64,000 nucleotides of DNA from Myxococcota bacterium (GTDB taxonomy: Bacteria > Myxococcota_A > Polyangia > Nannocystales > Nannocystaceae), in assembly GCA_039028615.1 (NCBI GenBank), contig JBCCHT010000034.1, positions 64,001-128,000 on the forward strand, given 5' to 3'. Below the pieces are notes generated by a model. It was not told the origin of the DNA. It made no database searches and saw nothing but the letters and a program-made list of their open reading frames with translations. The position numbers and the translations under genes were made by a program. This document shows, one piece after another, positions 54,548-64,000 of the stretch. Within the stretch, counting starts at the first letter, position 1; each line of letters begins with the position of its first letter.

Positions 54548-55570
54548 TCAGCCCGCGGCGTCGGCGCTGGCCGCCACCTCGTCGCCGCCCTCTTTGGCCT
54601 CGTCCTCGGCCGTGGGCGGCGGGGTCTTGCGGACCTCGACCGAGCCGTGCTCGGCCATCATGCGGTCCCACAGCGATTCCTCGGTGCGCAGGCCCAGCTC
54701 GGTGAGCACCAGGGGCCGCTTGAGCTGCGCCTTGCGGAAGACGGCGGGCGGCGCATCGGGCTGCTCGGGGTCGATGTCCTTGATGGTGAGCTGCTCGCTC
54801 ACCGAGACCTCGCCCTCCTCGAAGTCGAAGCTGCGCACGAGCTCGAAGCGACGGATGATGCCGCCGTCGCGCTTCATCTCGGACTCGCGAGACAGCGGGA
54901 AGGTGGCCGCACCGAGGCAGGCCTCGGTGTCGTCGTCGATGAGGGGCCGCTCGGTGAAGCGGTTGCCGTTCATCGGCACCAGGCGCATCACCCGGGCGCA
55001 CTTTTTGGGGTCGTCGGGCTCGCAGACCATGCTGTCGACGACCAGCACCGTGGTCTCGCCCATGGGCTCGAGCCGCATGCGCACACGGTTGGGGTTGGCC
55101 CGCAGCGCCCCGATGGCCCGGATGGCGATGCCGTTGGGGCGGAACTCGGCGATGGCGATGGGCCCGAGCGCGTCGCCGTCTTCGAAGTAGTCGGTGCGCG
55201 CCCACACCAGCGCCTTGCCGTCGTCGAGACCGGTGATCTCGAGGTCCTTCTCGCCGTCGAGCGCTCGCGGGTCGAGCACGGGCGAGGGGTTCTCCGGGGT
55301 GATGCAGGAGGCGACGACCTCGTCCTCGATCTCGAGCGGCTTGCCCGTGCAGTCCTTGAGGGGCCGCGCCGCCTCGCCCGTCTTGGCGTTGAAGCTCTTG
55401 AGGATGAGCGCGAACCACACCTCGGGGGGCACGTTCTGGCTCTGGGTCTCCTCGGCCTCGCCGCCCTCGACCTCCGAGGCGCACACGGGCATCGGCCCGT
55501 CCACGGTCTTCTTGCACCCGAGGGGAGCCAACAGGCCCATGCCGAGCAACGCTGCCGTCTGGAGTCTCAC
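54548..55570 (-). CDS. Hypothetical lipoprotein downstream of tagH
   Basis: MRLQTAALLGMGLLAPLGC lipobox; acidic, with paired cysteines. Start uncertain. Confidence 0.7.
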   Translation of the reverse strand: MRLQTAALLGMGLLAPLGCKKTVDGPMPVCASEVEGGEAEETQSQNVPPEVWFALILKSFNAKTGEAARPLKDCTGKPLEIEDEVVASCITPENPSPVLDPRALDGEKDLEITGLDDGKALVWARTDYFEDGDALGPIAIAEFRPNGIAIRAIGALRANPNRVRMRLEPMGETTVLVVDSMVCEPDDPKKCARVMRLVPMNGNRFTERPLIDDDTEACLGAATFPLSRESEMKRDGGIIRRFELVRSFDFEEGEVSVSEQLTIKDIDPEQPDAPPAVFRKAQLKRPLVLTELGLRTEESLWDRMMAEHGSVEVRKTPPPTAEDEAKEGGDEVAASADAAG

Positions 55571-55684
55571 GACAAGCTTCTTACCCCAAACGGCCGAGGA
55601 CAGCGACCCCACCTCGGGCACGGATCGAGCCCATCGGGGCGCGTGCGGGCGATTCGCGGCGGCGCAGCGGCGATCGAGGGCGGC

Positions 55685-57079
55685 TCAGCCCCCGGCCCCT
55701 TCGCCGCCCACCTCGGCGTATGCGCGGGCGAACTCGGGGCCGAACACGTGTTCGGTGATGTTCCGATCGGCCTCGGTGAGCTCTTCGTAGCGCTGCACGA
55801 AGGCCTTCCAGGCCGACGCGCCGCGGCTGCCCCACGCGCTCGAAACCCCGCGCTCGATCTCGGCCGGATCGAGGCGCGCGAGCAAGCTCCGCACGCCTTC
55901 CATCACGCCGTTGATGAGCGCGACCTGGTGGATCATCAGGTCCGCGTAGACGCCGGTCAGCTCCTGCGTGCGGTGGGGCCCGCCCTTTTGCCAGTCGAGC
56001 AGGTACTTCAGGACGTTCTCCGGCGTGCCCGCGGCATGCAGCGGCGTGAACTCCTTGATGGTGCGGACGCCCATCTCGCGACCGAACTGCTCCTGGCCCT
56101 TTTGCAGCTCGACGAAGGCCTTGGCGCTCGCCTGCAGCACGTCGCCCACGCAGGCCAAGAAGCGCTCGGCGTCCTCGGAGCTGCGGGGCACCTCTTCGTC
56201 GGGGCTCATGGTCTGGCTCAGCCGCTGCACCGCGGACATGCCTTCGCCCTCGCCTCCACCACCGCCGCTCGCCCCGGGCACGTTGGCCCCGAGCTGACGG
56301 GCGAAGCCCACGAACTCTTTTTCGTCGGCCAGGGCCGGGAACTCGCGGGCCAGCACCGACACCGCGAACTCGTGCAGCGACGGGTGCATGCCCTGCAGCG
56401 CAGACTGCAGCGCGTTGCCGACCTGCGACCACGACTGCCGGTACACGTCGTAGAGCGGACGCACCTGCTGGATCGCATGGTGCACGTCGGACATCTGCAC
56501 GTGCGCCGTGCCGGGCCCGGACGCGGGCACGGGCTGCGAAGGGCCGCGATCGATCGAGCCCTGCATCGCGTTGCCGGCATGGCCGTACACGGGCGCAGGC
56601 GGTTGGTGCTGACCGAGCGCGGGCCCGGGAGGCTGCGGCATCGGTGGTTGATGAATCGGCGCCGGCGGAACCGATTGCGGAGCCTGGTGTGGGACCTGCG
56701 GCGGATACCCGGTGGGCGGCGCCACCGAAGGGGCCGGAGCAGCTTCGTAGCCCGAGGGGTAGATCTGCGAGACGTCGGCGCGATTGAAGCGGAGCTCCAG
56801 CTTACCGATGGTCACCGACAACATGTCGCCGACCACCACCGCCTCGCCCGCTTGGATCTTGCGCCCGTTGAGCAGCGTGCCGTTGGTCGAGCCGAGGTCG
56901 AAGAACTTGGCCTGCCCGTCATCGAAACGCACGACCGCGTGCCAGCCCGAGACGAACGGGAACGGCAGCGGAAGGTCGTTGAGCGGATTGCGCCCGATTC
57001 GGACGGGCGACGAGCCAAACGTATGGTCTGCCGTCGTCCCCGCCTCGGAGTCGAACACGGTGATCACCACGGGCCGCAT
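55685..57079 (-). CDS. tagH: Type VI secretion-associated FHA domain protein
   Basis: FHA motifs IGRN, VSGWHA, DLGSTNGT; Pro/Gln linker; TagH-type C-terminus DLMIHQVALINGVMEGVRSLLARLDPAEIE...FGPEFARAY. Confidence 0.85.
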   Translation of the reverse strand: MRPVVITVFDSEAGTTADHTFGSSPVRIGRNPLNDLPLPFPFVSGWHAVVRFDDGQAKFFDLGSTNGTLLNGRKIQAGEAVVVGDMLSVTIGKLELRFNRADVSQIYPSGYEAAPAPSVAPPTGYPPQVPHQAPQSVPPAPIHQPPMPQPPGPALGQHQPPAPVYGHAGNAMQGSIDRGPSQPVPASGPGTAHVQMSDVHHAIQQVRPLYDVYRQSWSQVGNALQSALQGMHPSLHEFAVSVLAREFPALADEKEFVGFARQLGANVPGASGGGGGEGEGMSAVQRLSQTMSPDEEVPRSSEDAERFLACVGDVLQASAKAFVELQKGQEQFGREMGVRTIKEFTPLHAAGTPENVLKYLLDWQKGGPHRTQELTGVYADLMIHQVALINGVMEGVRSLLARLDPAEIERGVSSAWGSRGASAWKAFVQRYEELTEADRNITEHVFGPEFARAYAEVGGEGAGG

Positions 57080-57281: not shown

Positions 57282-59099
57282 ATGGCCTCCAACTCGCATT
57301 CATCGTCCGATGAGGACACCGGCTCCTCTGGAGCGCTGAGGCTGGTCACGCCTTCGGCCCAGGGCGGGACTGCGAGCGGGGACACGGGGGAGGAGTCCAA
57401 GGACTCGGGCCAGGGCGACTTCAACCTCCGCATCCTGAACCCGATGTTCAGGTACATGAGGGCCAAGTTCGGCGCCGACGTCCTGGACGACGTGGTCCGC
57501 GACTGCGGGATCGCCCCCGAGACGATCCGCCGCAACAACGAGTGGATCCGTCACGAGCAGCTCGAGCGCCTGCTCTCCGCCGCCCGGGAGATGACCGGCA
57601 GCGACGAAGAGTTCATGCGGGCCTGCACCTTCGAGCTGAAGAAGCAGTACGGCGCGTTCATCCTCATCGTCCGCGGGATGTCGGTCGGCATGACCTTCCG
57701 CATGATGGCCCGAACCAGTCCCATGGTCTGCCGGGCGAGCTACTTCGAGGTCGTCGACGGCAGCCGCACTTCGGTGCGGGTCCGGTACGTCACCCAGCAC
57801 AACGAGAGCCGACTGAGCTGCTTGTCGCGACAGGCGCAGCTCAAGATGGGCCCCACGCTGTTCATGGGCATGGCGCCCGCGCGCCTCAGCGAGCACAGCT
57901 GCGTGGCGCACGGCGACGACTGCTGCGAATACGAGCTGAGCTGGTACGAGCCGCTGCGGACCCGCCGGGTCATCGCTGGGCTCGCGCTCGGGGCCGCAGC
58001 CGCAGCCGCGATCCCCACCAGCTGGGCCGCGCCCGTGCTCGCGTTCACCGTGCTGCCGCTGCTCGGCGGCATCGCGGGCGCCTCGATCGAGCTGCGCCGC
58101 CTCATCGACGAGCACCTCAAGTTCTCCGACACCACCGCCCGCGAGATGGAGCAGATCGTCGGCCAGCATACCCAGGCCATGGACGAGCTGACCGCCCTGC
58201 AAGAGCGCGAGCGCAACTGGAGCCGCTTGCTCGAGCAAGCGGTGTCCGACCGGACCCTCAAGCTCAACACCATCGTGCGGCGCCTCAAGTCGGTGCTCCG
58301 CCGCCGCACGGGCGAGTTCCCGGCGCTGCCCAGCGACCTCCAGCAGCCCCTCGACGCGCTCACCAGCCTCGCCGACGACCTCTCCGACGACGCGTCCGAC
58401 CAGCAGTCGCCAGCCCACAACCCCACCAGCGAGAGCGCGGTCGATCGCGTGTCCAAGCTGGTCGGTGAGCTGGTCGACATCGCCGAGCACGACCCGGTCC
58501 GCAACCAAGACGGGCCCGAGGAAGTCATGGTCGACGAGCTCGTCGCTCGGATCCGCCGCCACCTCAAGGCGACGATGATCGGCCGGGACGTCCGCATCAC
58601 GGTGTTCCAGACCCGCGAGGCGCCCGAGCGCATCGTGACCGTCCGGACGATGCTCGAGCGCATCATCGACAACCTGCTGTTCAACGCCAGCCGGCACACC
58701 GAGCGCGGCAGCATCGTGGTCGAGGTCGGCGGTACGCCGGGCAGCCTGTTGCTGAAGCTCTCCGATACCGGCGAAGGGGTGGCCACCGAGCGCCTCGAGC
58801 AGGTCTTCGGCAACGACATGGCCAGCGCCAGCCTGCCCGCGCACAACTCGGGCCTGAGTTCGGCCGCCGGGTTGCTCGATCGCCTGGGTGGGCGGCTCGA
58901 GGTCATGAGCGAGCCCAAGGTGGGTACCACCTTGTGGGTCTACTTCCCCTTGGACATCCGTCGCGAAGGACAAGGGGATCGCGCTCGTAGTGAAGGCACC
59001 GCTGCCCCGCAGTCGGACGAGCCTCGCTCCGAGATGGTCGGTCGCGTCGTCACGATCCGGGCCCGCAGCGGCTCCGGCTCGCACGACGCCGCGGACTGA
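57282..59099 (+). CDS. Sensor histidine kinase-like protein with H-NOX/V4R-type N-terminal domain; degenerate H-box and G2 box
   Basis: V4R-like SCVAHGDDCCEYELSW; hydrophobic hairpin; coiled coil; H-box region PSDLQQPL; N-box NLLFNASRHT, G1 DTGEG, G2 AHNSGL, then GGRLEVMSEPKVGTT. Confidence 0.8.
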   Translation: MASNSHSSSDEDTGSSGALRLVTPSAQGGTASGDTGEESKDSGQGDFNLRILNPMFRYMRAKFGADVLDDVVRDCGIAPETIRRNNEWIRHEQLERLLSAAREMTGSDEEFMRACTFELKKQYGAFILIVRGMSVGMTFRMMARTSPMVCRASYFEVVDGSRTSVRVRYVTQHNESRLSCLSRQAQLKMGPTLFMGMAPARLSEHSCVAHGDDCCEYELSWYEPLRTRRVIAGLALGAAAAAAIPTSWAAPVLAFTVLPLLGGIAGASIELRRLIDEHLKFSDTTAREMEQIVGQHTQAMDELTALQERERNWSRLLEQAVSDRTLKLNTIVRRLKSVLRRRTGEFPALPSDLQQPLDALTSLADDLSDDASDQQSPAHNPTSESAVDRVSKLVGELVDIAEHDPVRNQDGPEEVMVDELVARIRRHLKATMIGRDVRITVFQTREAPERIVTVRTMLERIIDNLLFNASRHTERGSIVVEVGGTPGSLLLKLSDTGEGVATERLEQVFGNDMASASLPAHNSGLSSAAGLLDRLGGRLEVMSEPKVGTTLWVYFPLDIRREGQGDRARSEGTAAPQSDEPRSEMVGRVVTIRARSGSGSHDAAD

Positions 59100-59156
59100 A
59101 CGGGGCTTTGTGCCCCCTTCCTACCTTCGCCCCCTTAACCTTTGGTTCGTACTCCG

Positions 59157-60890
59157 ATGACTGCCCCAACGCCCTCCGGGGAACGCATGGTCGACATCAT
59201 GCTCCGCTACCTGCGAGCGGAGGGGACCCGCGTGGTCTTTGGTGTGCCGGGCGGGCTGCTGCACCCCTTCTTCACCGCCATCGAAGAAGACCCCGAGCTG
59301 CTGCTGGTGGTGACCAAGCACGAAGCCGGCGCGGCGTTCATGGCCGATGGCTACGCCCGCTCCACTGGCTCGCTGTCGGTCTGCGCGGGCACCTCGGGCC
59401 CCGGCGCCACCAACCTGCTCACCGGGGTCGCGGCGGCGTTCTCCGATGGCGTGCCCATGCTCGTGATCACCGGGCAGGCGCCGTCCCACACCATCGGTCG
59501 CGGTGCCGCCCAGGAGATGGCCCCCGAGGACGTCGACATCGTCGCGATGTTCCGGCCCGTCACCAAGTACTCGGTCATGATCCCCGCGCCCGACCGGGTC
59601 TCGCACCATCTCCGTCGGGCGCTGCGGCTCGCGCTCACCGGGCAGCCGGGCCCCGTGCACCTCAACGTGCCCGTCGACTTCTGGGAGCGCCCCGCTCGAC
59701 CGGAGTGGTTCGCCCCCCAGAGCTACCGCCCCTCGACCCAGACCTTCGACCGCGAGGCGGTTCGCGAGGCGTCGCGCTGGCTGGTCAACGCCGAGTACCC
59801 CGTGCTGCTGGTGGGCTCGGGCGTGGCCACCTCGAGCGCGCGTGTCGAGACGCGGGCACTCGCCGAGCGCCTGCCCGCCCGCGTCGCCACCACCCCGCGC
59901 GCCAAGGGGGTCTTTCCCGAGGACCACCCGCTATCGCTCGGGGTCATGGGCTTCGCCGGGCACACCACCGCGCGCGAGACCCTGCTCTCCGAGCGCGTCG
60001 ACGTCTTGCTCACGGTCGGCGCCTCGCTCAACGAGACCACCACCCTCAACTGGCATCCCAAGCTGATGCCCAGCCAGGCGCTCATCCAGCTCGACATCTC
60101 CGTCGACCGAATCGGCCGCAACTACCCGGTCACCGTGCCGCTGGTCGGCGACGCCCGCACCGTGCTCAACGAGCTGGCCTTCCACATCCAGCGCGAGCTC
60201 AAGGGCACCGTCACCGCGTCGCGCTGGGCCGAAGAGCCTCCCATCGACCACGGCGACAGCTTCTACTCCGAGCCCGAGCTACGGAACTCCGACGCCATTC
60301 CCGTCACGCCCCAGCGCTGGCGCGTCGAGCTGGGCGAGATCCTGCCGGGCAACGCCATCGTGTTCTCCGACATCGGCGGGCACATGCTCTTCAACATCCA
60401 AGACCTGGCCATCCGCCACCGCCAGAGCTTCATGCTCAACCTGGGCTTCGGCTCCATGGGGCACGGCACAGCAGCGCCCGTCGGGGCCGCTCTGGCTGCG
60501 CCCCATCGCCCGGTGGTGGCGATCATCGGCGACGCCTGCTTCACGATGTGCGGCATGGAGCTGCTCACCGCGGCCGAGTACGACGTGCCCGTCATCTGGA
60601 TCGTCGAGAACAACCAGATGCACGGCATCACCTGGCACGGTAGCCGGCAGGTGGGCAACGGTGAGCCGATGGACGCCATCCGCTATCGTCGCTCCATCGA
60701 GATCGCCCGCATCTCACAATCCATGGGGGTCGACTCCTGGGTCGTGGATCGCCCCGGGCAGCTGCGCTCCGCGTTCATGGAGGCGCTCGAGCGCCGACGC
60801 CCCTCCCTCATCGAGATCCTCGTCGACGGGTCCATCCCTCCCCCGCTCGGTGACCGAGCCAAGTCCATCGCGGGCTTCCGCGATCGTTGA
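59157..60890 (+). CDS. Thiamine diphosphate-dependent enzyme (acetolactate-synthase superfamily, not canonical IlvB)
   Basis: VFGVPGG, KHEAGAAFMADGYAR, TSGPGATN, PGPVHLNVPVD, GSMG, GDACF...ENN. Confidence 0.9.
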   Translation: MTAPTPSGERMVDIMLRYLRAEGTRVVFGVPGGLLHPFFTAIEEDPELLLVVTKHEAGAAFMADGYARSTGSLSVCAGTSGPGATNLLTGVAAAFSDGVPMLVITGQAPSHTIGRGAAQEMAPEDVDIVAMFRPVTKYSVMIPAPDRVSHHLRRALRLALTGQPGPVHLNVPVDFWERPARPEWFAPQSYRPSTQTFDREAVREASRWLVNAEYPVLLVGSGVATSSARVETRALAERLPARVATTPRAKGVFPEDHPLSLGVMGFAGHTTARETLLSERVDVLLTVGASLNETTTLNWHPKLMPSQALIQLDISVDRIGRNYPVTVPLVGDARTVLNELAFHIQRELKGTVTASRWAEEPPIDHGDSFYSEPELRNSDAIPVTPQRWRVELGEILPGNAIVFSDIGGHMLFNIQDLAIRHRQSFMLNLGFGSMGHGTAAPVGAALAAPHRPVVAIIGDACFTMCGMELLTAAEYDVPVIWIVENNQMHGITWHGSRQVGNGEPMDAIRYRRSIEIARISQSMGVDSWVVDRPGQLRSAFMEALERRRPSLIEILVDGSIPPPLGDRAKSIAGFRDR

Positions 60891-61609
60891 GCCTTTGCCC
60901 GATGAGCTCTGAACTCCGAGGTCCCATCGAAGACCGGCCGTGGCCGACCACCCTGCCCGGGCGCGTGGTCCGACCGGGGGCCGAGCCTCGGATCCGCGGC
61001 TACGACCTGCACGGCGACCTCGTACGGCACTACGGCTTCGCCGAGATCGCCCTCATCGCGCTGCACGGACAGGCTCCCGCGGGTAACGAGGGTCGGCTCT
61101 TCGAGCTTTCGCTGAGCTTGCTGAGTCCTTGCTCCGTCGCCGAAGCCCCCAGCCACGGGGCGCAGCTGGTGCGTCGGTGTGGCGCCCGCAGTGCAGCCGT
61201 GCTCTCGGCGGGCGCGGTGGCCCTGAGCGAGCAGGCCCAGGCCGTCGTGGACGAACATCGCGAGCTGCTCGCGTGGCTCGACGCCCCCGAGTCTGTGCTG
61301 CCGCCCGCCTATCAGAGCACCGAGCCGGCCGAGACCGACGCGGTGGCCCGCTTCGCCGAGCACGTGCGGGCCCTGGGGATCACGCTCCCCATCCTCGAGC
61401 AGACCCCGACCTTCCGGGCGGCCCTGCTCGCCGCGCTGCACCACTGCGGGCTGCGGGATCCCGAGCGCCTGCAGGTGGCCTGGGTGCTGGCGCGGCTGCC
61501 CACCGTGCTGGCCGAGGCCCTCGAGCAACCCAGCGGCGAGCTCCGCAGCTACCCCATCGACCTGCCCCACTACGCGTACGTCCCCTCCGACGACGAACCC
61601 AGCCCCTGA
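60887..61609 (+). CDS. Citrate-synthase/citryl-CoA-lyase-fold protein A (degenerate)
   Basis: RIRGYDLHGDL...FAEIALIALHGQAP, EAPSH, ARLPTVLAEALE. TTG start overlaps the upstream stop (TTGA); alternative ATG 60902. Confidence 0.65.
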   Translation: MSLCPMSSELRGPIEDRPWPTTLPGRVVRPGAEPRIRGYDLHGDLVRHYGFAEIALIALHGQAPAGNEGRLFELSLSLLSPCSVAEAPSHGAQLVRRCGARSAAVLSAGAVALSEQAQAVVDEHRELLAWLDAPESVLPPAYQSTEPAETDAVARFAEHVRALGITLPILEQTPTFRAALLAALHHCGLRDPERLQVAWVLARLPTVLAEALEQPSGELRSYPIDLPHYAYVPSDDEPSP

Positions 61610-61623
61610 GCGGCCCGCGAACC

Positions 61624-62430
61624 ATGTCCGCGCCATCCATCGTCACCCACGTGGGTCATGCTTCGTGGGGCGACAACCTCTACCGGGGCTACGGCGTGCT
61701 GAACGACCTGGCGGGCACCGACGGGTTCTGGAGCATGATCTCGATGTCGCTGGGCGGACCTCGGCTCGAACCACGCCAGTGCCGGGTGCTCGACGAGCTG
61801 TCGACCTGTAGCTTCGCCGCCGACCCGAGGGTGTGGCCGATGAAGGCGGTGCGGATGGGTGCGGCCTACGGCAGCGTCACCGCGGGCTTGTGCGTGGGGC
61901 TGCTGGCAGTCGACCACGCCCGCATGGGCCCCGCGATCGCGGGCGGAGCGGCGAAGATCTTCGTGGGCCTGATGCCACCGGGCGAGCCGATGCCCCCCAC
62001 CGAAGGACTCCACACCGAGCTCGATGCCCTGGTGGCCTCGGGGAGTCGCCTCGATGGTTTCGGCGTGCCCTTCCGTCCCCGAGACGAGCGCGTCGATGCC
62101 CTGCGGCGCTGCATGGCCGCGCACCCGGAGGACGAGGGCCCCTACTGGCGGCTGATGAACGCCGTCGACGAGTACCTCGCGGCGCACCATCGGCTCCCCA
62201 TCAACATCGCGGGCGCAGCCGCAGCGGTCGCCCTCGATCTCGGTTTTCGGCCGCGACAGATCACCCACCTGCCCGCCGCCCTGCTGCTGTCGAACTTCCT
62301 CGCCAACGCCTACGAGGGTGCAGCCCAGCGTCCCGCCGTCTTGCAGCGGCTCCCCGATGCGGTGATCGAGTACGTGGGTGAGCCCGACCGTCGCAGCCCC
62401 CGAGCCCTCGCGGCGGAACCCGGCGGCTGA
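61624..62430 (+). CDS. Citrate-synthase/citryl-CoA-lyase-fold protein B (degenerate)
   Basis: YRGYGVLNDL, ADPRVWP, RLDGFGVPFRPRDERV, LPINIAGAAAAVALDLGF, IEYVGEPDR. Confidence 0.7.
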   Translation: MSAPSIVTHVGHASWGDNLYRGYGVLNDLAGTDGFWSMISMSLGGPRLEPRQCRVLDELSTCSFAADPRVWPMKAVRMGAAYGSVTAGLCVGLLAVDHARMGPAIAGGAAKIFVGLMPPGEPMPPTEGLHTELDALVASGSRLDGFGVPFRPRDERVDALRRCMAAHPEDEGPYWRLMNAVDEYLAAHHRLPINIAGAAAAVALDLGFRPRQITHLPAALLLSNFLANAYEGAAQRPAVLQRLPDAVIEYVGEPDRRSPRALAAEPGG

Positions 62431-62435
62431 ATTGC

Positions 62436-62467
62436 CGAGCGCGCCCGGCTTGCACCGCGCGCGCTCG
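62436..62467. terminator. GC hairpin between convergent genes
   Basis: CGAGCGCGC...GCGCGCTCG 9-bp stem with inner CGG/CCG pairs. Confidence 0.4.
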
Positions 62468-62490: not shown

Positions 62491-64000
62491 CTACTCGTCG
62501 TCGTCCGGGGCCGACTGCGTGACGTCGTCGGCACTGCCCTCGTCGTCACCGCCCGCGTCCGGGGCCTCGATCGCCGCGGGCGGCTCGGGCTCCGACGCCT
62601 CGGGCTCCTCCGACGCCTCGCTGCTCGGTGCCTGCTGCACGGCCGCCGACTGGGCGGGAGAGTCGGCCTCTTCGAAGTCGAAGTGCCAACGACCGCCAAA
62701 GCCCAGGCCAATGGTGAGCTTGGGCGGGATGTCGCCCTCGGCCATGCGCTCGAGCAGGGCGCGCGACAGGACCGGCATCAAGGAGCCTCGCATCGCGTGG
62801 TCCAGCGCGCGGGCGCCCGTCTCCGACTCGGTGCAGCGCGAGACCATCTCGGAGATGAGCGAGTCGGCGAAGATCGTCTGCAGGCCGTGGGCCTCTTCGA
62901 GGCGCTTGCCCAGCCCGCCGAGCTTGAGCTTGGCGATGTCGGTGAGGATCTCCGGGTCCATCGGGCGATACGGCACGATGCTCATCCGGGCGAGCAACGC
63001 CGGCTTGAAGTGCTTGCTCAGCGACGGCCGCACCGCCTCGAGCACGTCGCTGACGGGCGGCTTTTTGCCGTCCTCGTGCAGGCTCATGATGACGTCGGTG
63101 GCCAGGTTGCTGGTGAGGATGACGACCGTGTTGCGGAAGTTGACGATCCGCCCCTCGCCGTCGCTCAGCATGCCCTTGTCGAAGACCTGATAGAACAGGT
63201 TCATGACCTCGAGGTCGGCCTTCTCGCACTCGTCGAGCAGGACCACCGAGTAGGGGCGCTTGCGCACCGCCTCGGTGAGCACGCCGCCCTCGCCGTAGCC
63301 CACGTAGCCTGGAGGCGAGCCGATGAGCCGCGACACGGTGTGCTTCTCCTGGAACTCGCTCATGTTGATGGTGACCATCGAGCGCTCGCCACCGTAGAGC
63401 AGGTCGGCCAGCGCCAGCGCGGTCTCCGTCTTACCGACACCACTGGGGCCGACGAAGAGCATCACCGAGATCGGCGTCTGCGGGTTGCGAACGCCCGCGT
63501 GGGACATGCGAATCGACTCGGACACGGCCGCCACCGCGTGGTCCTGGCCCTTGATCCGCGCCTGGAGGTGCTCCTCGAGGTTGAGCATCAGCTCGATGGA
63601 GCTGCTCCGCATCTTGCCCACGGGGATGCCGGTCCAGTCGGCCACCACCTGCGCGATGGCGTCGCGATCGACCTCGGCGTGCACCAGCGGCTCCTCGCCT
63701 TGCGCCTCGAGCAGCGTGGCCCGGGCCTTCTCGACCGCCGCCTGCCGCTGCTCGCGGACGTTGTCGGGCGACTCCCGCAGCGCGGCCGTGGCCTCGCGCA
63801 CGGCCACGATGGCTTCGCGCTCGGCGTTGAGCTTGGTCTCGACCGTCTCGATCTCGCCGTCGATCTCGGCGATGCGGGTCCGCAGCTCTTCGACGCGCTC
63901 GCGGCTGTCGTCACCCGCGGCGGCATCGGCCAGGTCGCGGGTCCGGGAGTCGAGCTCGCGCTGGAGGCTGGCCTGCTCGGAGCGCAGGGTGACCAGGGCG
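62491..64000 (-). CDS. tssH: Type VI secretion AAA+ ATPase ClpV/TssH, C-terminal part (5' end outside the window)
   Basis: VADWTGIPVGKM, GPSGVGKTETALALADLLYGGE, INMSEFQEKHTVSRLIGSPPGYVGYGEGGVLTEAVR, ESETGARAL. Frame is open to the window edge; tagH is nearby. Confidence 0.88.
   Translation of the reverse strand, partial: ALVTLRSEQASLQRELDSRTRDLADAAAGDDSRERVEELRTRIAEIDGEIETVETKLNAEREAIVAVREATAALRESPDNVREQRQAAVEKARATLLEAQGEEPLVHAEVDRDAIAQVVADWTGIPVGKMRSSSIELMLNLEEHLQARIKGQDHAVAAVSESIRMSHAGVRNPQTPISVMLFVGPSGVGKTETALALADLLYGGERSMVTINMSEFQEKHTVSRLIGSPPGYVGYGEGGVLTEAVRKRPYSVVLLDECEKADLEVMNLFYQVFDKGMLSDGEGRIVNFRNTVVILTSNLATDVIMSLHEDGKKPPVSDVLEAVRPSLSKHFKPALLARMSIVPYRPMDPEILTDIAKLKLGGLGKRLEEAHGLQTIFADSLISEMVSRCTESETGARALDHAMRGSLMPVLSRALLERMAEGDIPPKLTIGLGFGGRWHFDFEEADSPAQSAAVQQAPSSEASEEPEASEPEPPAAIEAPDAGGDDEGSADDVTQSAPDDDE

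Follow-up and report, generated by a model that had tools for sequence, protein, structure and literature searches.

The closest known counterparts of the system reported here are the furanolide gene clusters (the cyanobacterin cybE/cybF genes, the myxobacterial deoxyenhygrolide cybE/cybF pairs and the nostoclide ncl genes), in which, as far as the available portions of the reports go, a thiamine diphosphate (ThDP)-dependent carboligase is followed by a FabH-like partner enzyme (PMC12395478, PMC8777810, PMC9324945). We describe a cassette of four co-directional genes on the plus strand, at positions 57282..62430 of a 64,000-nucleotide stretch of a Nannocystaceae genome (contig JBCCHT010000034.1; the whole stretch is called the window below), that shares this plan of carboligase and then partner but lacks a FabH-like gene and has neither a CoA ligase nor an ammonia lyase beside it. 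The partner is here a pair of proteins, A and B, of the citryl-CoA-lyase fold, and neither this pair nor the dedicated kinase of the cassette is found in those same portions of the furanolide cluster descriptions. We read the cassette as a synthase-receptor module for an acyloin-derived, furanone-like signal and put the probability of this reading at roughly 0.55.

A further parallel is offered by CqsA/CqsS and LqsA/LqsS, in which an acyloin-type signal synthase is encoded with a membrane histidine kinase receptor; CqsA and LqsA are pyridoxal phosphate enzymes, the CqsS and LqsS receptors use multi-pass membrane domains, and no homology to the cassette is implied. The ThDP enzymes BbmA and CsmA have reportedly been studied as alpha-hydroxy-beta-keto acid synthases. 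In furanolide synthesis, according to the accessible part of the source, CybE joins two 2-oxo acids by acyloin condensation, and CsmA and a second enzyme are described there as CybE homologues (PMC12395478). Nostoclides, themselves furanolides, appear as cell-density-dependent mediators in the available text of PMC9324945. A literature search whose coverage excluded most subscription journals and supplements returned no paper whose title or opening abstract lines describe the cassette, and neither "citrate" nor "histidine kinase" occurs in PMC13288894.

Layout of the Cassette

The four genes and the features of the sensor used below are as follows.

57282..59099, plus strand: sensor histidine kinase gene (605 aa; Pfam HATPase_c, E 6.7e-15, AlphaFold model and alignments)
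57417..57959, plus strand: predicted haem-less ligand domain of the H-NOX/V4R clan (sensor residues 46-226; Foldseek, VIA and hhalign)
57969..58088, plus strand: two predicted membrane helices (sensor residues ~230-248 and ~251-269; hydropathy peaks of 1.6 and 1.84)
58332..58334, plus strand: Ser351, at the position of the H-box phospho-His (LPSDLQQPL against SHDINNPL in alignments)
59157..60890, plus strand: gene for a predicted ThDP-dependent carboligase, BbmA/CsmA/CybE-like (577 aa from the ATG at 59157; Pfam TPP_enzyme N/M/C)
60902..61609, plus strand: gene for protein A, citryl-CoA-lyase fold (235 aa from the ATG; 6hxp profile match, NCBIfam PRK06224)
61624..62430, plus strand: gene for protein B, citryl-CoA-lyase fold (268 aa; 6hxp profile match, invariant columns)

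The open reading frames agree with a preliminary description of this DNA, which had reported four tightly spaced genes with gaps of 57 nt (sensor/ThDP) and 14 nt (A/B). The 4-nt overlap it placed between the ThDP gene and gene A exists if translation of A begins at a TTG at 60887, and disappears with the ATG at 60902. An alternative ATG of the ThDP gene, at 59187, agrees with the starts of many orthologues. The GC content of the cassette (0.68-0.71) is that of its surroundings, and the sensor domain, gene A and gene B each occur once in the 12.3-Mb genome.

Co-occurrence of the Four Genes

Among 73 genomes of the order, B was matched in 37 and the sensor domain in 35, and 23 of the 37 loci fetched hold all four genes in order. 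A single-sequence scan of genome contigs gave 600 pattern matches, none of which was confirmed; an alignment-based rescan succeeded, and the further loci from the wider scan carry titles such as Polyangiaceae, Nannocystaceae, Myxococcales, Bradymonadales and Kofleriaceae. Duplicates (21 loci) were removed before counting, the L044 sensor and the L059 A protein were excluded from alignments A1/A3, and whole-genome profile searches scored 6-8 candidates per genome only. Across the 106 distinct B loci, A is adjacent in 105 and a ThDP gene lies nearby in 101. All four genes are present in 56, in the order of the window in 52 and rearranged in 4. A sensor lies within 4.5 kb of 58 of the 61 ThDP genes that form a clade with the window enzyme (see below), and the other three stand at contig ends with less than 320 bp of upstream sequence.

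An evenly drawn sample of 401 genomes of the phylum provided a check that was not ascertained on gene B. It contained 16 sensor matches of at least 160 bits (the next scored 106), in 15 genomes. A clade ThDP gene is adjacent to 15 of the 16 matches, with A and B in 13, A at a contig end in one and a FabH-like gene in one; the 16th (L189) faces a ThDP and FabH operon 4.5 kb away. Because the sensor domain is single-copy and yet stands beside 58 of the 61 clade ThDP genes, the co-occurrence is far beyond chance. It is one of the points on which the preliminary description had beforehand made its proposal depend, and the proposal survives it.

The ThDP Enzyme

All three Pfam ThDP domains (TPP_enzyme N, M and C) are matched in the second protein of the cassette, and the KHE (Glu-56), GD..NN and GASLNETT motifs attributed to it earlier are all in the sequence. 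The best NCBIfam model is acetolactate synthase (TIGR00118), at 377.5 bits against a cut-off of 538.35, and the enzyme stays under all 25 NCBIfam cut-offs among the matches listed. A search of the PDB ranked BbmA top (E 3e-128) and CsmA third (5e-93), with acetohydroxyacid synthase (AHAS) I weaker (1.3e-69). BbmA (GSSLGDWQT) and CsmA (PDB 8x3x, 8x3z) have in common with the cassette enzyme a G-x-S-L at the position of the G-x-R-F of AHAS.

In a FastTree tree of 112 ThDP sequences the window enzyme is one of 61 that form a clade (support 0.905), and it stands at a clear distance from the AHAS of its own genome; fragments shorter than 480 aa were excluded from the trees, among them the frameshifted L057, where both the ThDP and B genes (L057:5004-8200) are disrupted by assembly error or decay. 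Members of the clade are 59-82% identical to the window enzyme, conservation is 95% or higher at 204 of 572 positions, and KHE and GD..NN are kept in 61 of 61, whereas the AHAS-type GxRFxDR occurs in none. A separate, complete ilv/leu operon lies on contig C12 of the genome, with ilvN-like and ilvC-like genes (assigned by inspection of their sequences) beside an ilvB whose large-subunit product carries GARFDDRAT and is 31% identical to the window enzyme. No ilvN or ilvC adjoins the cassette in the Pfam and NCBIfam annotation of its neighbours. The earlier statement that no ilvH/N or ilvC is adjacent is borne out, and the enzyme does not group with the housekeeping AHAS, a grouping that the earlier account had named as refuting its proposal.

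The catalytic Glu, the GD..NN motif, the proximity to BbmA and CsmA and a lineage paired with a downstream condensing enzyme are all features of a carboligase, and family membership strongly suggests that the enzyme is an alpha-hydroxy-beta-keto acid/acyloin synthase. Two more pairs of ThDP and FabH-like (ACP_syn_III) genes occur in the source genome, at G000:C23:32583-35424 (L169) and G000:C16:76891-79823 (L170), and are candidate furanolide clusters; the C23 pair is preceded by a haem-peroxidase-family gene.

Proteins A and B

A profile of 48 B proteins matches the citryl-CoA lyase structure 6hxp over its whole length (E 3.9e-17, positions 8-263), and a profile of A matches it in the N-terminal part only (E 9.1e-7, positions 27-122), A being without the GFG/DER region. 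Citryl-CoA-lyase models match both proteins below their cut-offs (PRK06224, 48.7 against 261 bits; for A, E 4.5e-6, far under the cut-off), and A is a distant paralogue of B (hhalign 90%). B thus shares with 6hxp, and with the citryl-CoA lyase module of ATP-citrate lyase, the fold, a length of ~270 aa and a full-length profile match. The two differ in the active site: in the alignment of B with 6hxp, DHG becomes DPR with loss of its His to Pro, the HGG His is gone, GYGH becomes GFGV (His to Val), DPR becomes DER, and NVD becomes NIA (Asp to Ala). The replaced His/His/His/Asp columns are, we assume from the roles known in citrate synthase, the catalytic positions of the fold. A second difference is that the cassette proteins form a divergent A/B pair. 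The preliminary description, which had seen citrate-synthase-like proteins with altered active sites, was right on both fold and residues.

A new conserved set takes the place of the canonical one in B: D67-P-R-x-W71-P-x-K74-x-x-R77, G145-F-G147, D154-E155-R156 and N194. Invariant columns are Gly-145, Gly-147, Asp-154, Glu-155, Arg-156, Asn-194, Asp-205 and Arg-256, and near-invariant ones Asp-67, Trp-71, Pro-72, Lys-74, Arg-77 and Arg-151. The DPRxW, G-[FY]-G, DER and NxA motifs recur in a distant B family (A6; hhalign 99.9%), which was reached through locus L065 and comprises at least 947 proteins annotated as "citrate synthase" or as hypothetical, such as Noc_1268 of Nitrosococcus oceani; no relative was found in the plasmid collection. 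Conservation of A and B (30-57%) is lower than that of the ThDP enzyme. By these residue patterns B is likely the catalytic subunit and A its structural partner.

The predicted A/B complex scored 0.34 against 0.01 for the best control (predicted local distance difference test, pLDDT, at least 87; runs agreeing in at least 1% of contacts). The mark for a pass is cleared by 2 of 215 mismatched pairs and, among 157 solved ones, by 116, only 18 of them at or below 0.60; passes in that low range are more often wrong than right unless the pairing was likely beforehand. The heterodimer raised in the earlier account therefore receives a weak pass, and even this may reflect likeness to solved oligomers of the same fold.

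Related arrangements occur elsewhere. At L065:4131-13038 a ThDP gene stands with several citrate-synthase-like genes, two of them tandem-fused double-domain forms, beside a LysR-like regulator. At L204, L205, L206, L063 and L067 a ThDP gene is followed by a single, longer citrate-synthase-like gene, with a DUF2378 gene upstream in L204 and L205 and a ketosynthase upstream in L206 and L067. DUF2378 was considered as a split sensor domain and rejected (hhalign probability 0.2%, single sequence). The A and B genes of L131 neighbour a major facilitator superfamily (MFS) transporter, a 3-hydroxyisobutyrate-dehydrogenase-like gene and beta-oxidation genes.

The Sensor Kinase

The AlphaFold model of the sensor shows an N-terminal globular domain, a two-helix hydrophobic hairpin, a long coiled coil and a HATPase_c domain. 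Two hydrophobic windows are present in 39 of 57 sensor orthologues, one in 14 and none in 4; the short loop between the helices would place the sensor and kinase domains both in the cytoplasm. Because a Foldseek search with the full-length model was dominated by kinase domains, the N-terminal domain was refolded alone (pLDDT 94). Its top Foldseek matches were all H-NOX (best E 7.4e-7), and V4R structures were not seen among the matches listed. The VIA comparison ranked H-NOX 4u99 first (Z 13.8; root mean square deviation (r.m.s.d.) 3.2, 173 aligned) and the haem-free N-terminal ligand domain of VirS second (Z 12.5; r.m.s.d. 4.0, 173 aligned), with the V4R sensors PoxR (Z 7.8; r.m.s.d. 4.3, 134 aligned) and DmpR (Z 7.3) lower. 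Against a reference set of 15 H-NOX proteins from the same phylum hhalign gave 94%.

Pfam matched Arabinose_bd in 25 of 46 sensor domains (weakly), V4R in 5 and HNOB in 3, the V4R model PF02830 reaching E of 0.1 or below in those 5 of 46 (best 0.0044). Atlas returned unnamed clusters, below 0.9, and a weak match to monooxygenases in a PDB sequence search (E 0.005) was taken as chance. The E-x2-C-x3-G-x3-C motif, which we take to be the Zn-type motif of V4R effector domains, is found in 37 of the 46. The Zn-site-type residues are kept at high frequency: Cys-180 in 44 of 46, Glu-204 in 37, Cys-207 in 38 and Cys-215 in 44.

The column of the proximal His holds Tyr in 34 of the 46 domains, Phe in 6 and His in none; a His eight residues past it in 24 of 46 (Pro in the window) leaves some room for register error. 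Strict YxSxR is present in 11 of 46, the window sensor has YVTQH, and hhalign sets the H-NOX motif against a stretch of similar sequence. According to the accessible part of PMC7108781, the proximal His is absolutely conserved in the H-NOX proteins compared there, the Zn site of the Shewanella oneidensis protein consists of Cys-139, His-161, Cys-164 and Cys-172, and the haem-free Vibrio cholerae H-NOX is a redox sensor. The models and alignments indicate that the sensor domain is a haem-less member of the H-NOX/V4R clan, nearer H-NOX than the XylR-type V4R domains. The V4R domain named in the preliminary description belongs to the same clan; the correction concerns the closest fold, which is H-NOX in these comparisons. 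Fold, Zn-site-type Cys spacing and kinase output are common to the cassette sensor and to H-NOX sensors with cognate histidine kinases, VirS and the XylR/DmpR/PoxR V4R proteins; the cassette sensor differs in lacking the proximal His, in being a single-chain fusion to a membrane hairpin and a kinase, and in its linkage to a biosynthetic operon.

The H-box His is present in 50 of 57 distinct sensor orthologues. It is lost in the window sensor and at L031, L032, L058, L174, L074 and L089, that is, in all five examined members of the window's genus plus L074 and L089. The window sensor retains the N and G1 boxes and has lost the GxG-type G2 pattern, which 45 of 57 orthologues keep. The "pseudokinase" of the earlier account is in these alignments a lineage-specific loss, true of the window copy (Ser351) but not of the cassette.

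The same haem-less H-NOX-fold domain is fused to Ser/Thr kinase, GGDEF, adenylate/guanylate cyclase and GAF-cyclase outputs at L175, L176, L177, L178, L182, L214 and L216, where no ThDP or A/B genes lie nearby. The sensor-domain profile is matched by 1596 representatives, an unnamed family.

Exchange of Partner Enzymes and Receptors

At two loci the sensor and the clade ThDP enzyme are kept while a FabH-like partner replaces A and B. The gene order in L187 is response regulator, sensor, clade ThDP, ACP_syn_III protein and receiver protein; L174 retains the sensor and clade ThDP with a convergent ACP_syn_III gene and two P450s, and has no A/B. The full-length best matches of the L187 ACP_syn_III protein are FabH-like proteins adjoining ThDP genes, an adjacency that is also the arrangement of the myxobacterial cybE/cybF homologues in the available text of PMC8777810. 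By sequence the FabH-like proteins of L187 and L174 look CybF-like, an assignment made without a characterised CybF sequence in the comparison. In the trees, FabH-paired ThDP enzymes are interleaved with A/B-paired ones, L169 being sister to L050-L054 with support 1.0. Given these swaps and the interleaving, A/B and the CybF-like enzymes look like alternative second steps. L187:1-5026 and L189:7613-14925 also hold a hydrolase-ThDP-FabH operon that runs into anti-sigma/SpoIIE/STAS partner-switching genes (fully seen in L189) and lies opposite a response regulator and sensor pair.

Receptors were surveyed at 80 metagenome loci of the distant B family, with counts limited to loci with enough room. 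A is adjacent in 58 of 58, and a ThDP gene accompanies the pair in 41 of 43. Genes for a TonB-dependent receptor stand nearby at 50 of 53 loci and those for a periplasmic binding protein at 22 of 30, and at several annotated loci hybrid kinase, GGDEF or EAL proteins come next. No TonB receptor of at least 80 bits was found beside the Myxococcota cassettes. LuxR-type helix-turn-helix (HTH) proteins adjoin the enzyme trio in L194, L195 and L198, and one adjoins the His-less sensor in L089; for the LuxR N-terminus Atlas gave unnamed or GAF-minority clusters. That the same enzyme trio goes with three unrelated types of receptor is the pattern expected of a signal synthase. L194:5472-13371 holds two tandem ThDP-A-B trios with a LuxR-HTH protein, carrying an unnamed N-terminal domain, between them.

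Genomic Surroundings

The cassette is flanked in the window by genes of a type VI secretion system (T6SS).

55685..57079, minus strand: tagH, T6SS FHA protein (Pfam T6SS_FHA_C and FHA), divergent from the cassette across a 202-bp gap
62437..62466, plus strand: GC-rich stem-loop, a possible weak terminator, between the cassette and the convergent clpV (z -1.94)
62491..64000, minus strand: clpV/tssH, T6SS ATPase, 3' part (TIGR03345, E 5.6e-160), convergent with the cassette

The hairpin said to close the operon exists; its advantage is modest, as 9 of 200 shuffles fold equally well, and it is not among the 3 terminator-like sites called by the terminator scan. A sigma-70 scan gave 0 promoter-like sites. 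The rest of the T6SS cluster (tssG, hcp, tssJ, tssK and tssM, locus L173) lies farther along the same contig. In the closest genera 22 of 23 loci have T6SS flanks, against 0 of 34 loci elsewhere, so the setting is lineage-specific and may be an insertion site only. A conserved gene at 54548-55621 of the window (minus strand), with no Pfam or NCBIfam match, adjoins tagH, and the same pairing is seen at 18 loci. At L035:9814-14637 and L037:9788-14778, photosynthesis genes (reaction-centre H chain, PucC and a rubrerythrin-family protein) lie directly downstream in place of clpV.

Discussion

By the features compared, the cassette proteins fall outside the AHAS, citrate synthase/citryl-CoA lyase, haem H-NOX and cyb-type families, and by analogy the cassette probably works like a furanolide-type signal circuit. 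The substrates, product, ligand and regulon named here are proposals built on the genes, folds, residue changes, linkage and swaps described above. The ThDP enzyme would join two 2-oxo acids to an alpha-hydroxy-beta-keto acid or acyloin, as do CybE, BbmA and CsmA, a step that family membership strongly suggests. The A/B pair may then take the role of the FabH-like CybF, as the fold and the swaps moderately suggest: an acyl-CoA would be added to the acyloin ketone by aldol or Claisen chemistry in the rebuilt active site, with the DER and DPRxW residues of B, and lactonisation on the neighbouring hydroxyl would yield a small furanone or butenolide. Linkage and the VirS precedent argue, again moderately, that the co-encoded kinase binds this hydrophobic product in the pocket of its cytoplasmic H-NOX-fold domain. 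In most relatives the kinase would autophosphorylate and signal to a receiver protein. With the phospho-His lost in the window's genus, output there must bypass autophosphorylation, and the sensor would pass its signal on by binding a second kinase or some other partner. Type VI secretion is a candidate output, weakly suggested by the position of the cassette inside the T6SS cluster of the closest relatives.

A quorum-sensing-like role, as the preliminary description had proposed, would be one reading of the genomic linkage of synthase and receptor. The linkage, the receptor swaps and the FabH-like replacement speak for the synthase-receptor reading, while a domain of H-NOX type with a Zn-site pattern leaves space for a redox sensor. 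Several observations weigh against the reading. Gene B was the route by which most loci were found, and relatives do not count as independent cases. At 45 of the 106 loci ThDP and B genes occur without such a sensor within 5.2 kb (a few are contig-limited, and most belong to other ThDP clades), and at most of these 45 no receptor was found nearby. Of 24 sampled genomes with a strong B match, 11 are without a strong sensor match, and L112, L122 and L131 contain A and B with ~8 kb upstream and no ThDP gene in it. The window sensor itself has neither the phospho-His nor the G2 pattern, the genome holds no close match to the cognate response regulator of L187/L189 (best 53 bits), and the conserved Cys set suits a redox-sensing Zn site equally well. 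The FabH gene of L174 is convergent, not co-transcribed. B is without the canonical catalytic base, and the condensation mechanism is a prediction. Nostoclides, in the accessible part of the report, did not autoinduce their own cluster (PMC9324945).

Other explanations were weighed on the same evidence. The kinase may sense an outside cue, either thiol redox, by way of a Zn site, or NO/O2, by way of a non-canonical haem, and switch on the operon for an antibiotic-like or other metabolite that is not its own ligand. Cluster-situated regulators are common, H-NOX is the nearest fold of the sensor domain, and a YxSxR-like stretch aligns with the H-NOX motif. The E-x2-C-x7-C pattern and upstream Cys also have the spacing of the S. 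oneidensis H-NOX Zn site, and the haem-free V. cholerae protein gives a precedent for redox sensing (PMC7108781, in its available portion). We nevertheless regard this as unlikely, given that no His occupies the proximal column, that strict YxSxR is confined to the minority noted above, and that the same enzymes pair elsewhere with periplasmic import and sensing modules, a better fit to a released product. It is distinctly improbable, in our estimate, that the product of the trio is a metal chelator or resembles a cofactor, or that the trio degrades an imported substrate, and that the receptors monitor the availability of this compound and not cell density. TonB receptors, which usually import metal chelates, accompany nearly all of the metagenome loci with enough room, and some sensor-less loci stand beside MFS and Na:sulfate/citrate-type transporters; beside the Myxococcota cassettes, however, no TonB receptor of at least 80 bits was found, and the interchange with CybF-like enzymes suggests lactone natural-product chemistry.

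We give little credence to the view that A and B, as true pseudo-enzymes, bind CoA esters or carboxylates and serve the ThDP enzyme as regulatory or channelling subunits, with the acyloin alone as product. The alpha-hydroxyketone autoinducers CAI-1 and LAI-1 would be a parallel for such a product, all canonical His/Asp positions are replaced in B, A is without half of the site, and both are less conserved than the ThDP enzyme; yet the charged, non-canonical motif set of B is invariant in two distant families, and what takes the place of B elsewhere is a bona fide condensing-enzyme fold. That the locus is an ordinary extra acetolactate synthase with two decaying citrate synthase paralogues and a chance neighbour kinase is largely refuted. 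Acetolactate synthase models do give the best NCBIfam scores, but these are below the cut-off, a complete ilv/leu operon lies elsewhere in the genome, and the linkage survives gene rearrangement.

Returning to the synthase-receptor reading, the coupling of a synthase with a receptor and of a ThDP enzyme with a condensing partner are already known, whereas the A/B enzyme pair and the sensor family are undescribed. As judged from the genes, the four most likely make and detect a small signalling molecule, and the cassette is a conserved, single-copy synthase-receptor candidate for a myxobacterial signal across several Myxococcota families. A function is thereby proposed for a large family mis-annotated as "citrate synthase" (at least 947 relatives of one member), the natural FabH-like swaps indicate a candidate reaction for the A/B family, and the H-NOX fold is extended to a haem-less family fused to kinases and cyclases. 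More tentatively, we suggest a widespread, undescribed signal class in which a ThDP carboligase and a rebuilt citryl-CoA-lyase-fold heterodimer would constitute a furanone-forming system convergent with CybF, its product being sensed in Myxococcota by a haem-less H-NOX kinase and in other bacteria by TonB receptors, binding proteins and cyclic di-GMP kinases. If this is true, myxobacteria would have a dedicated autoinducer-receptor pair, possibly one that crosses phyla, which in the lineage of the window would control type VI secretion.

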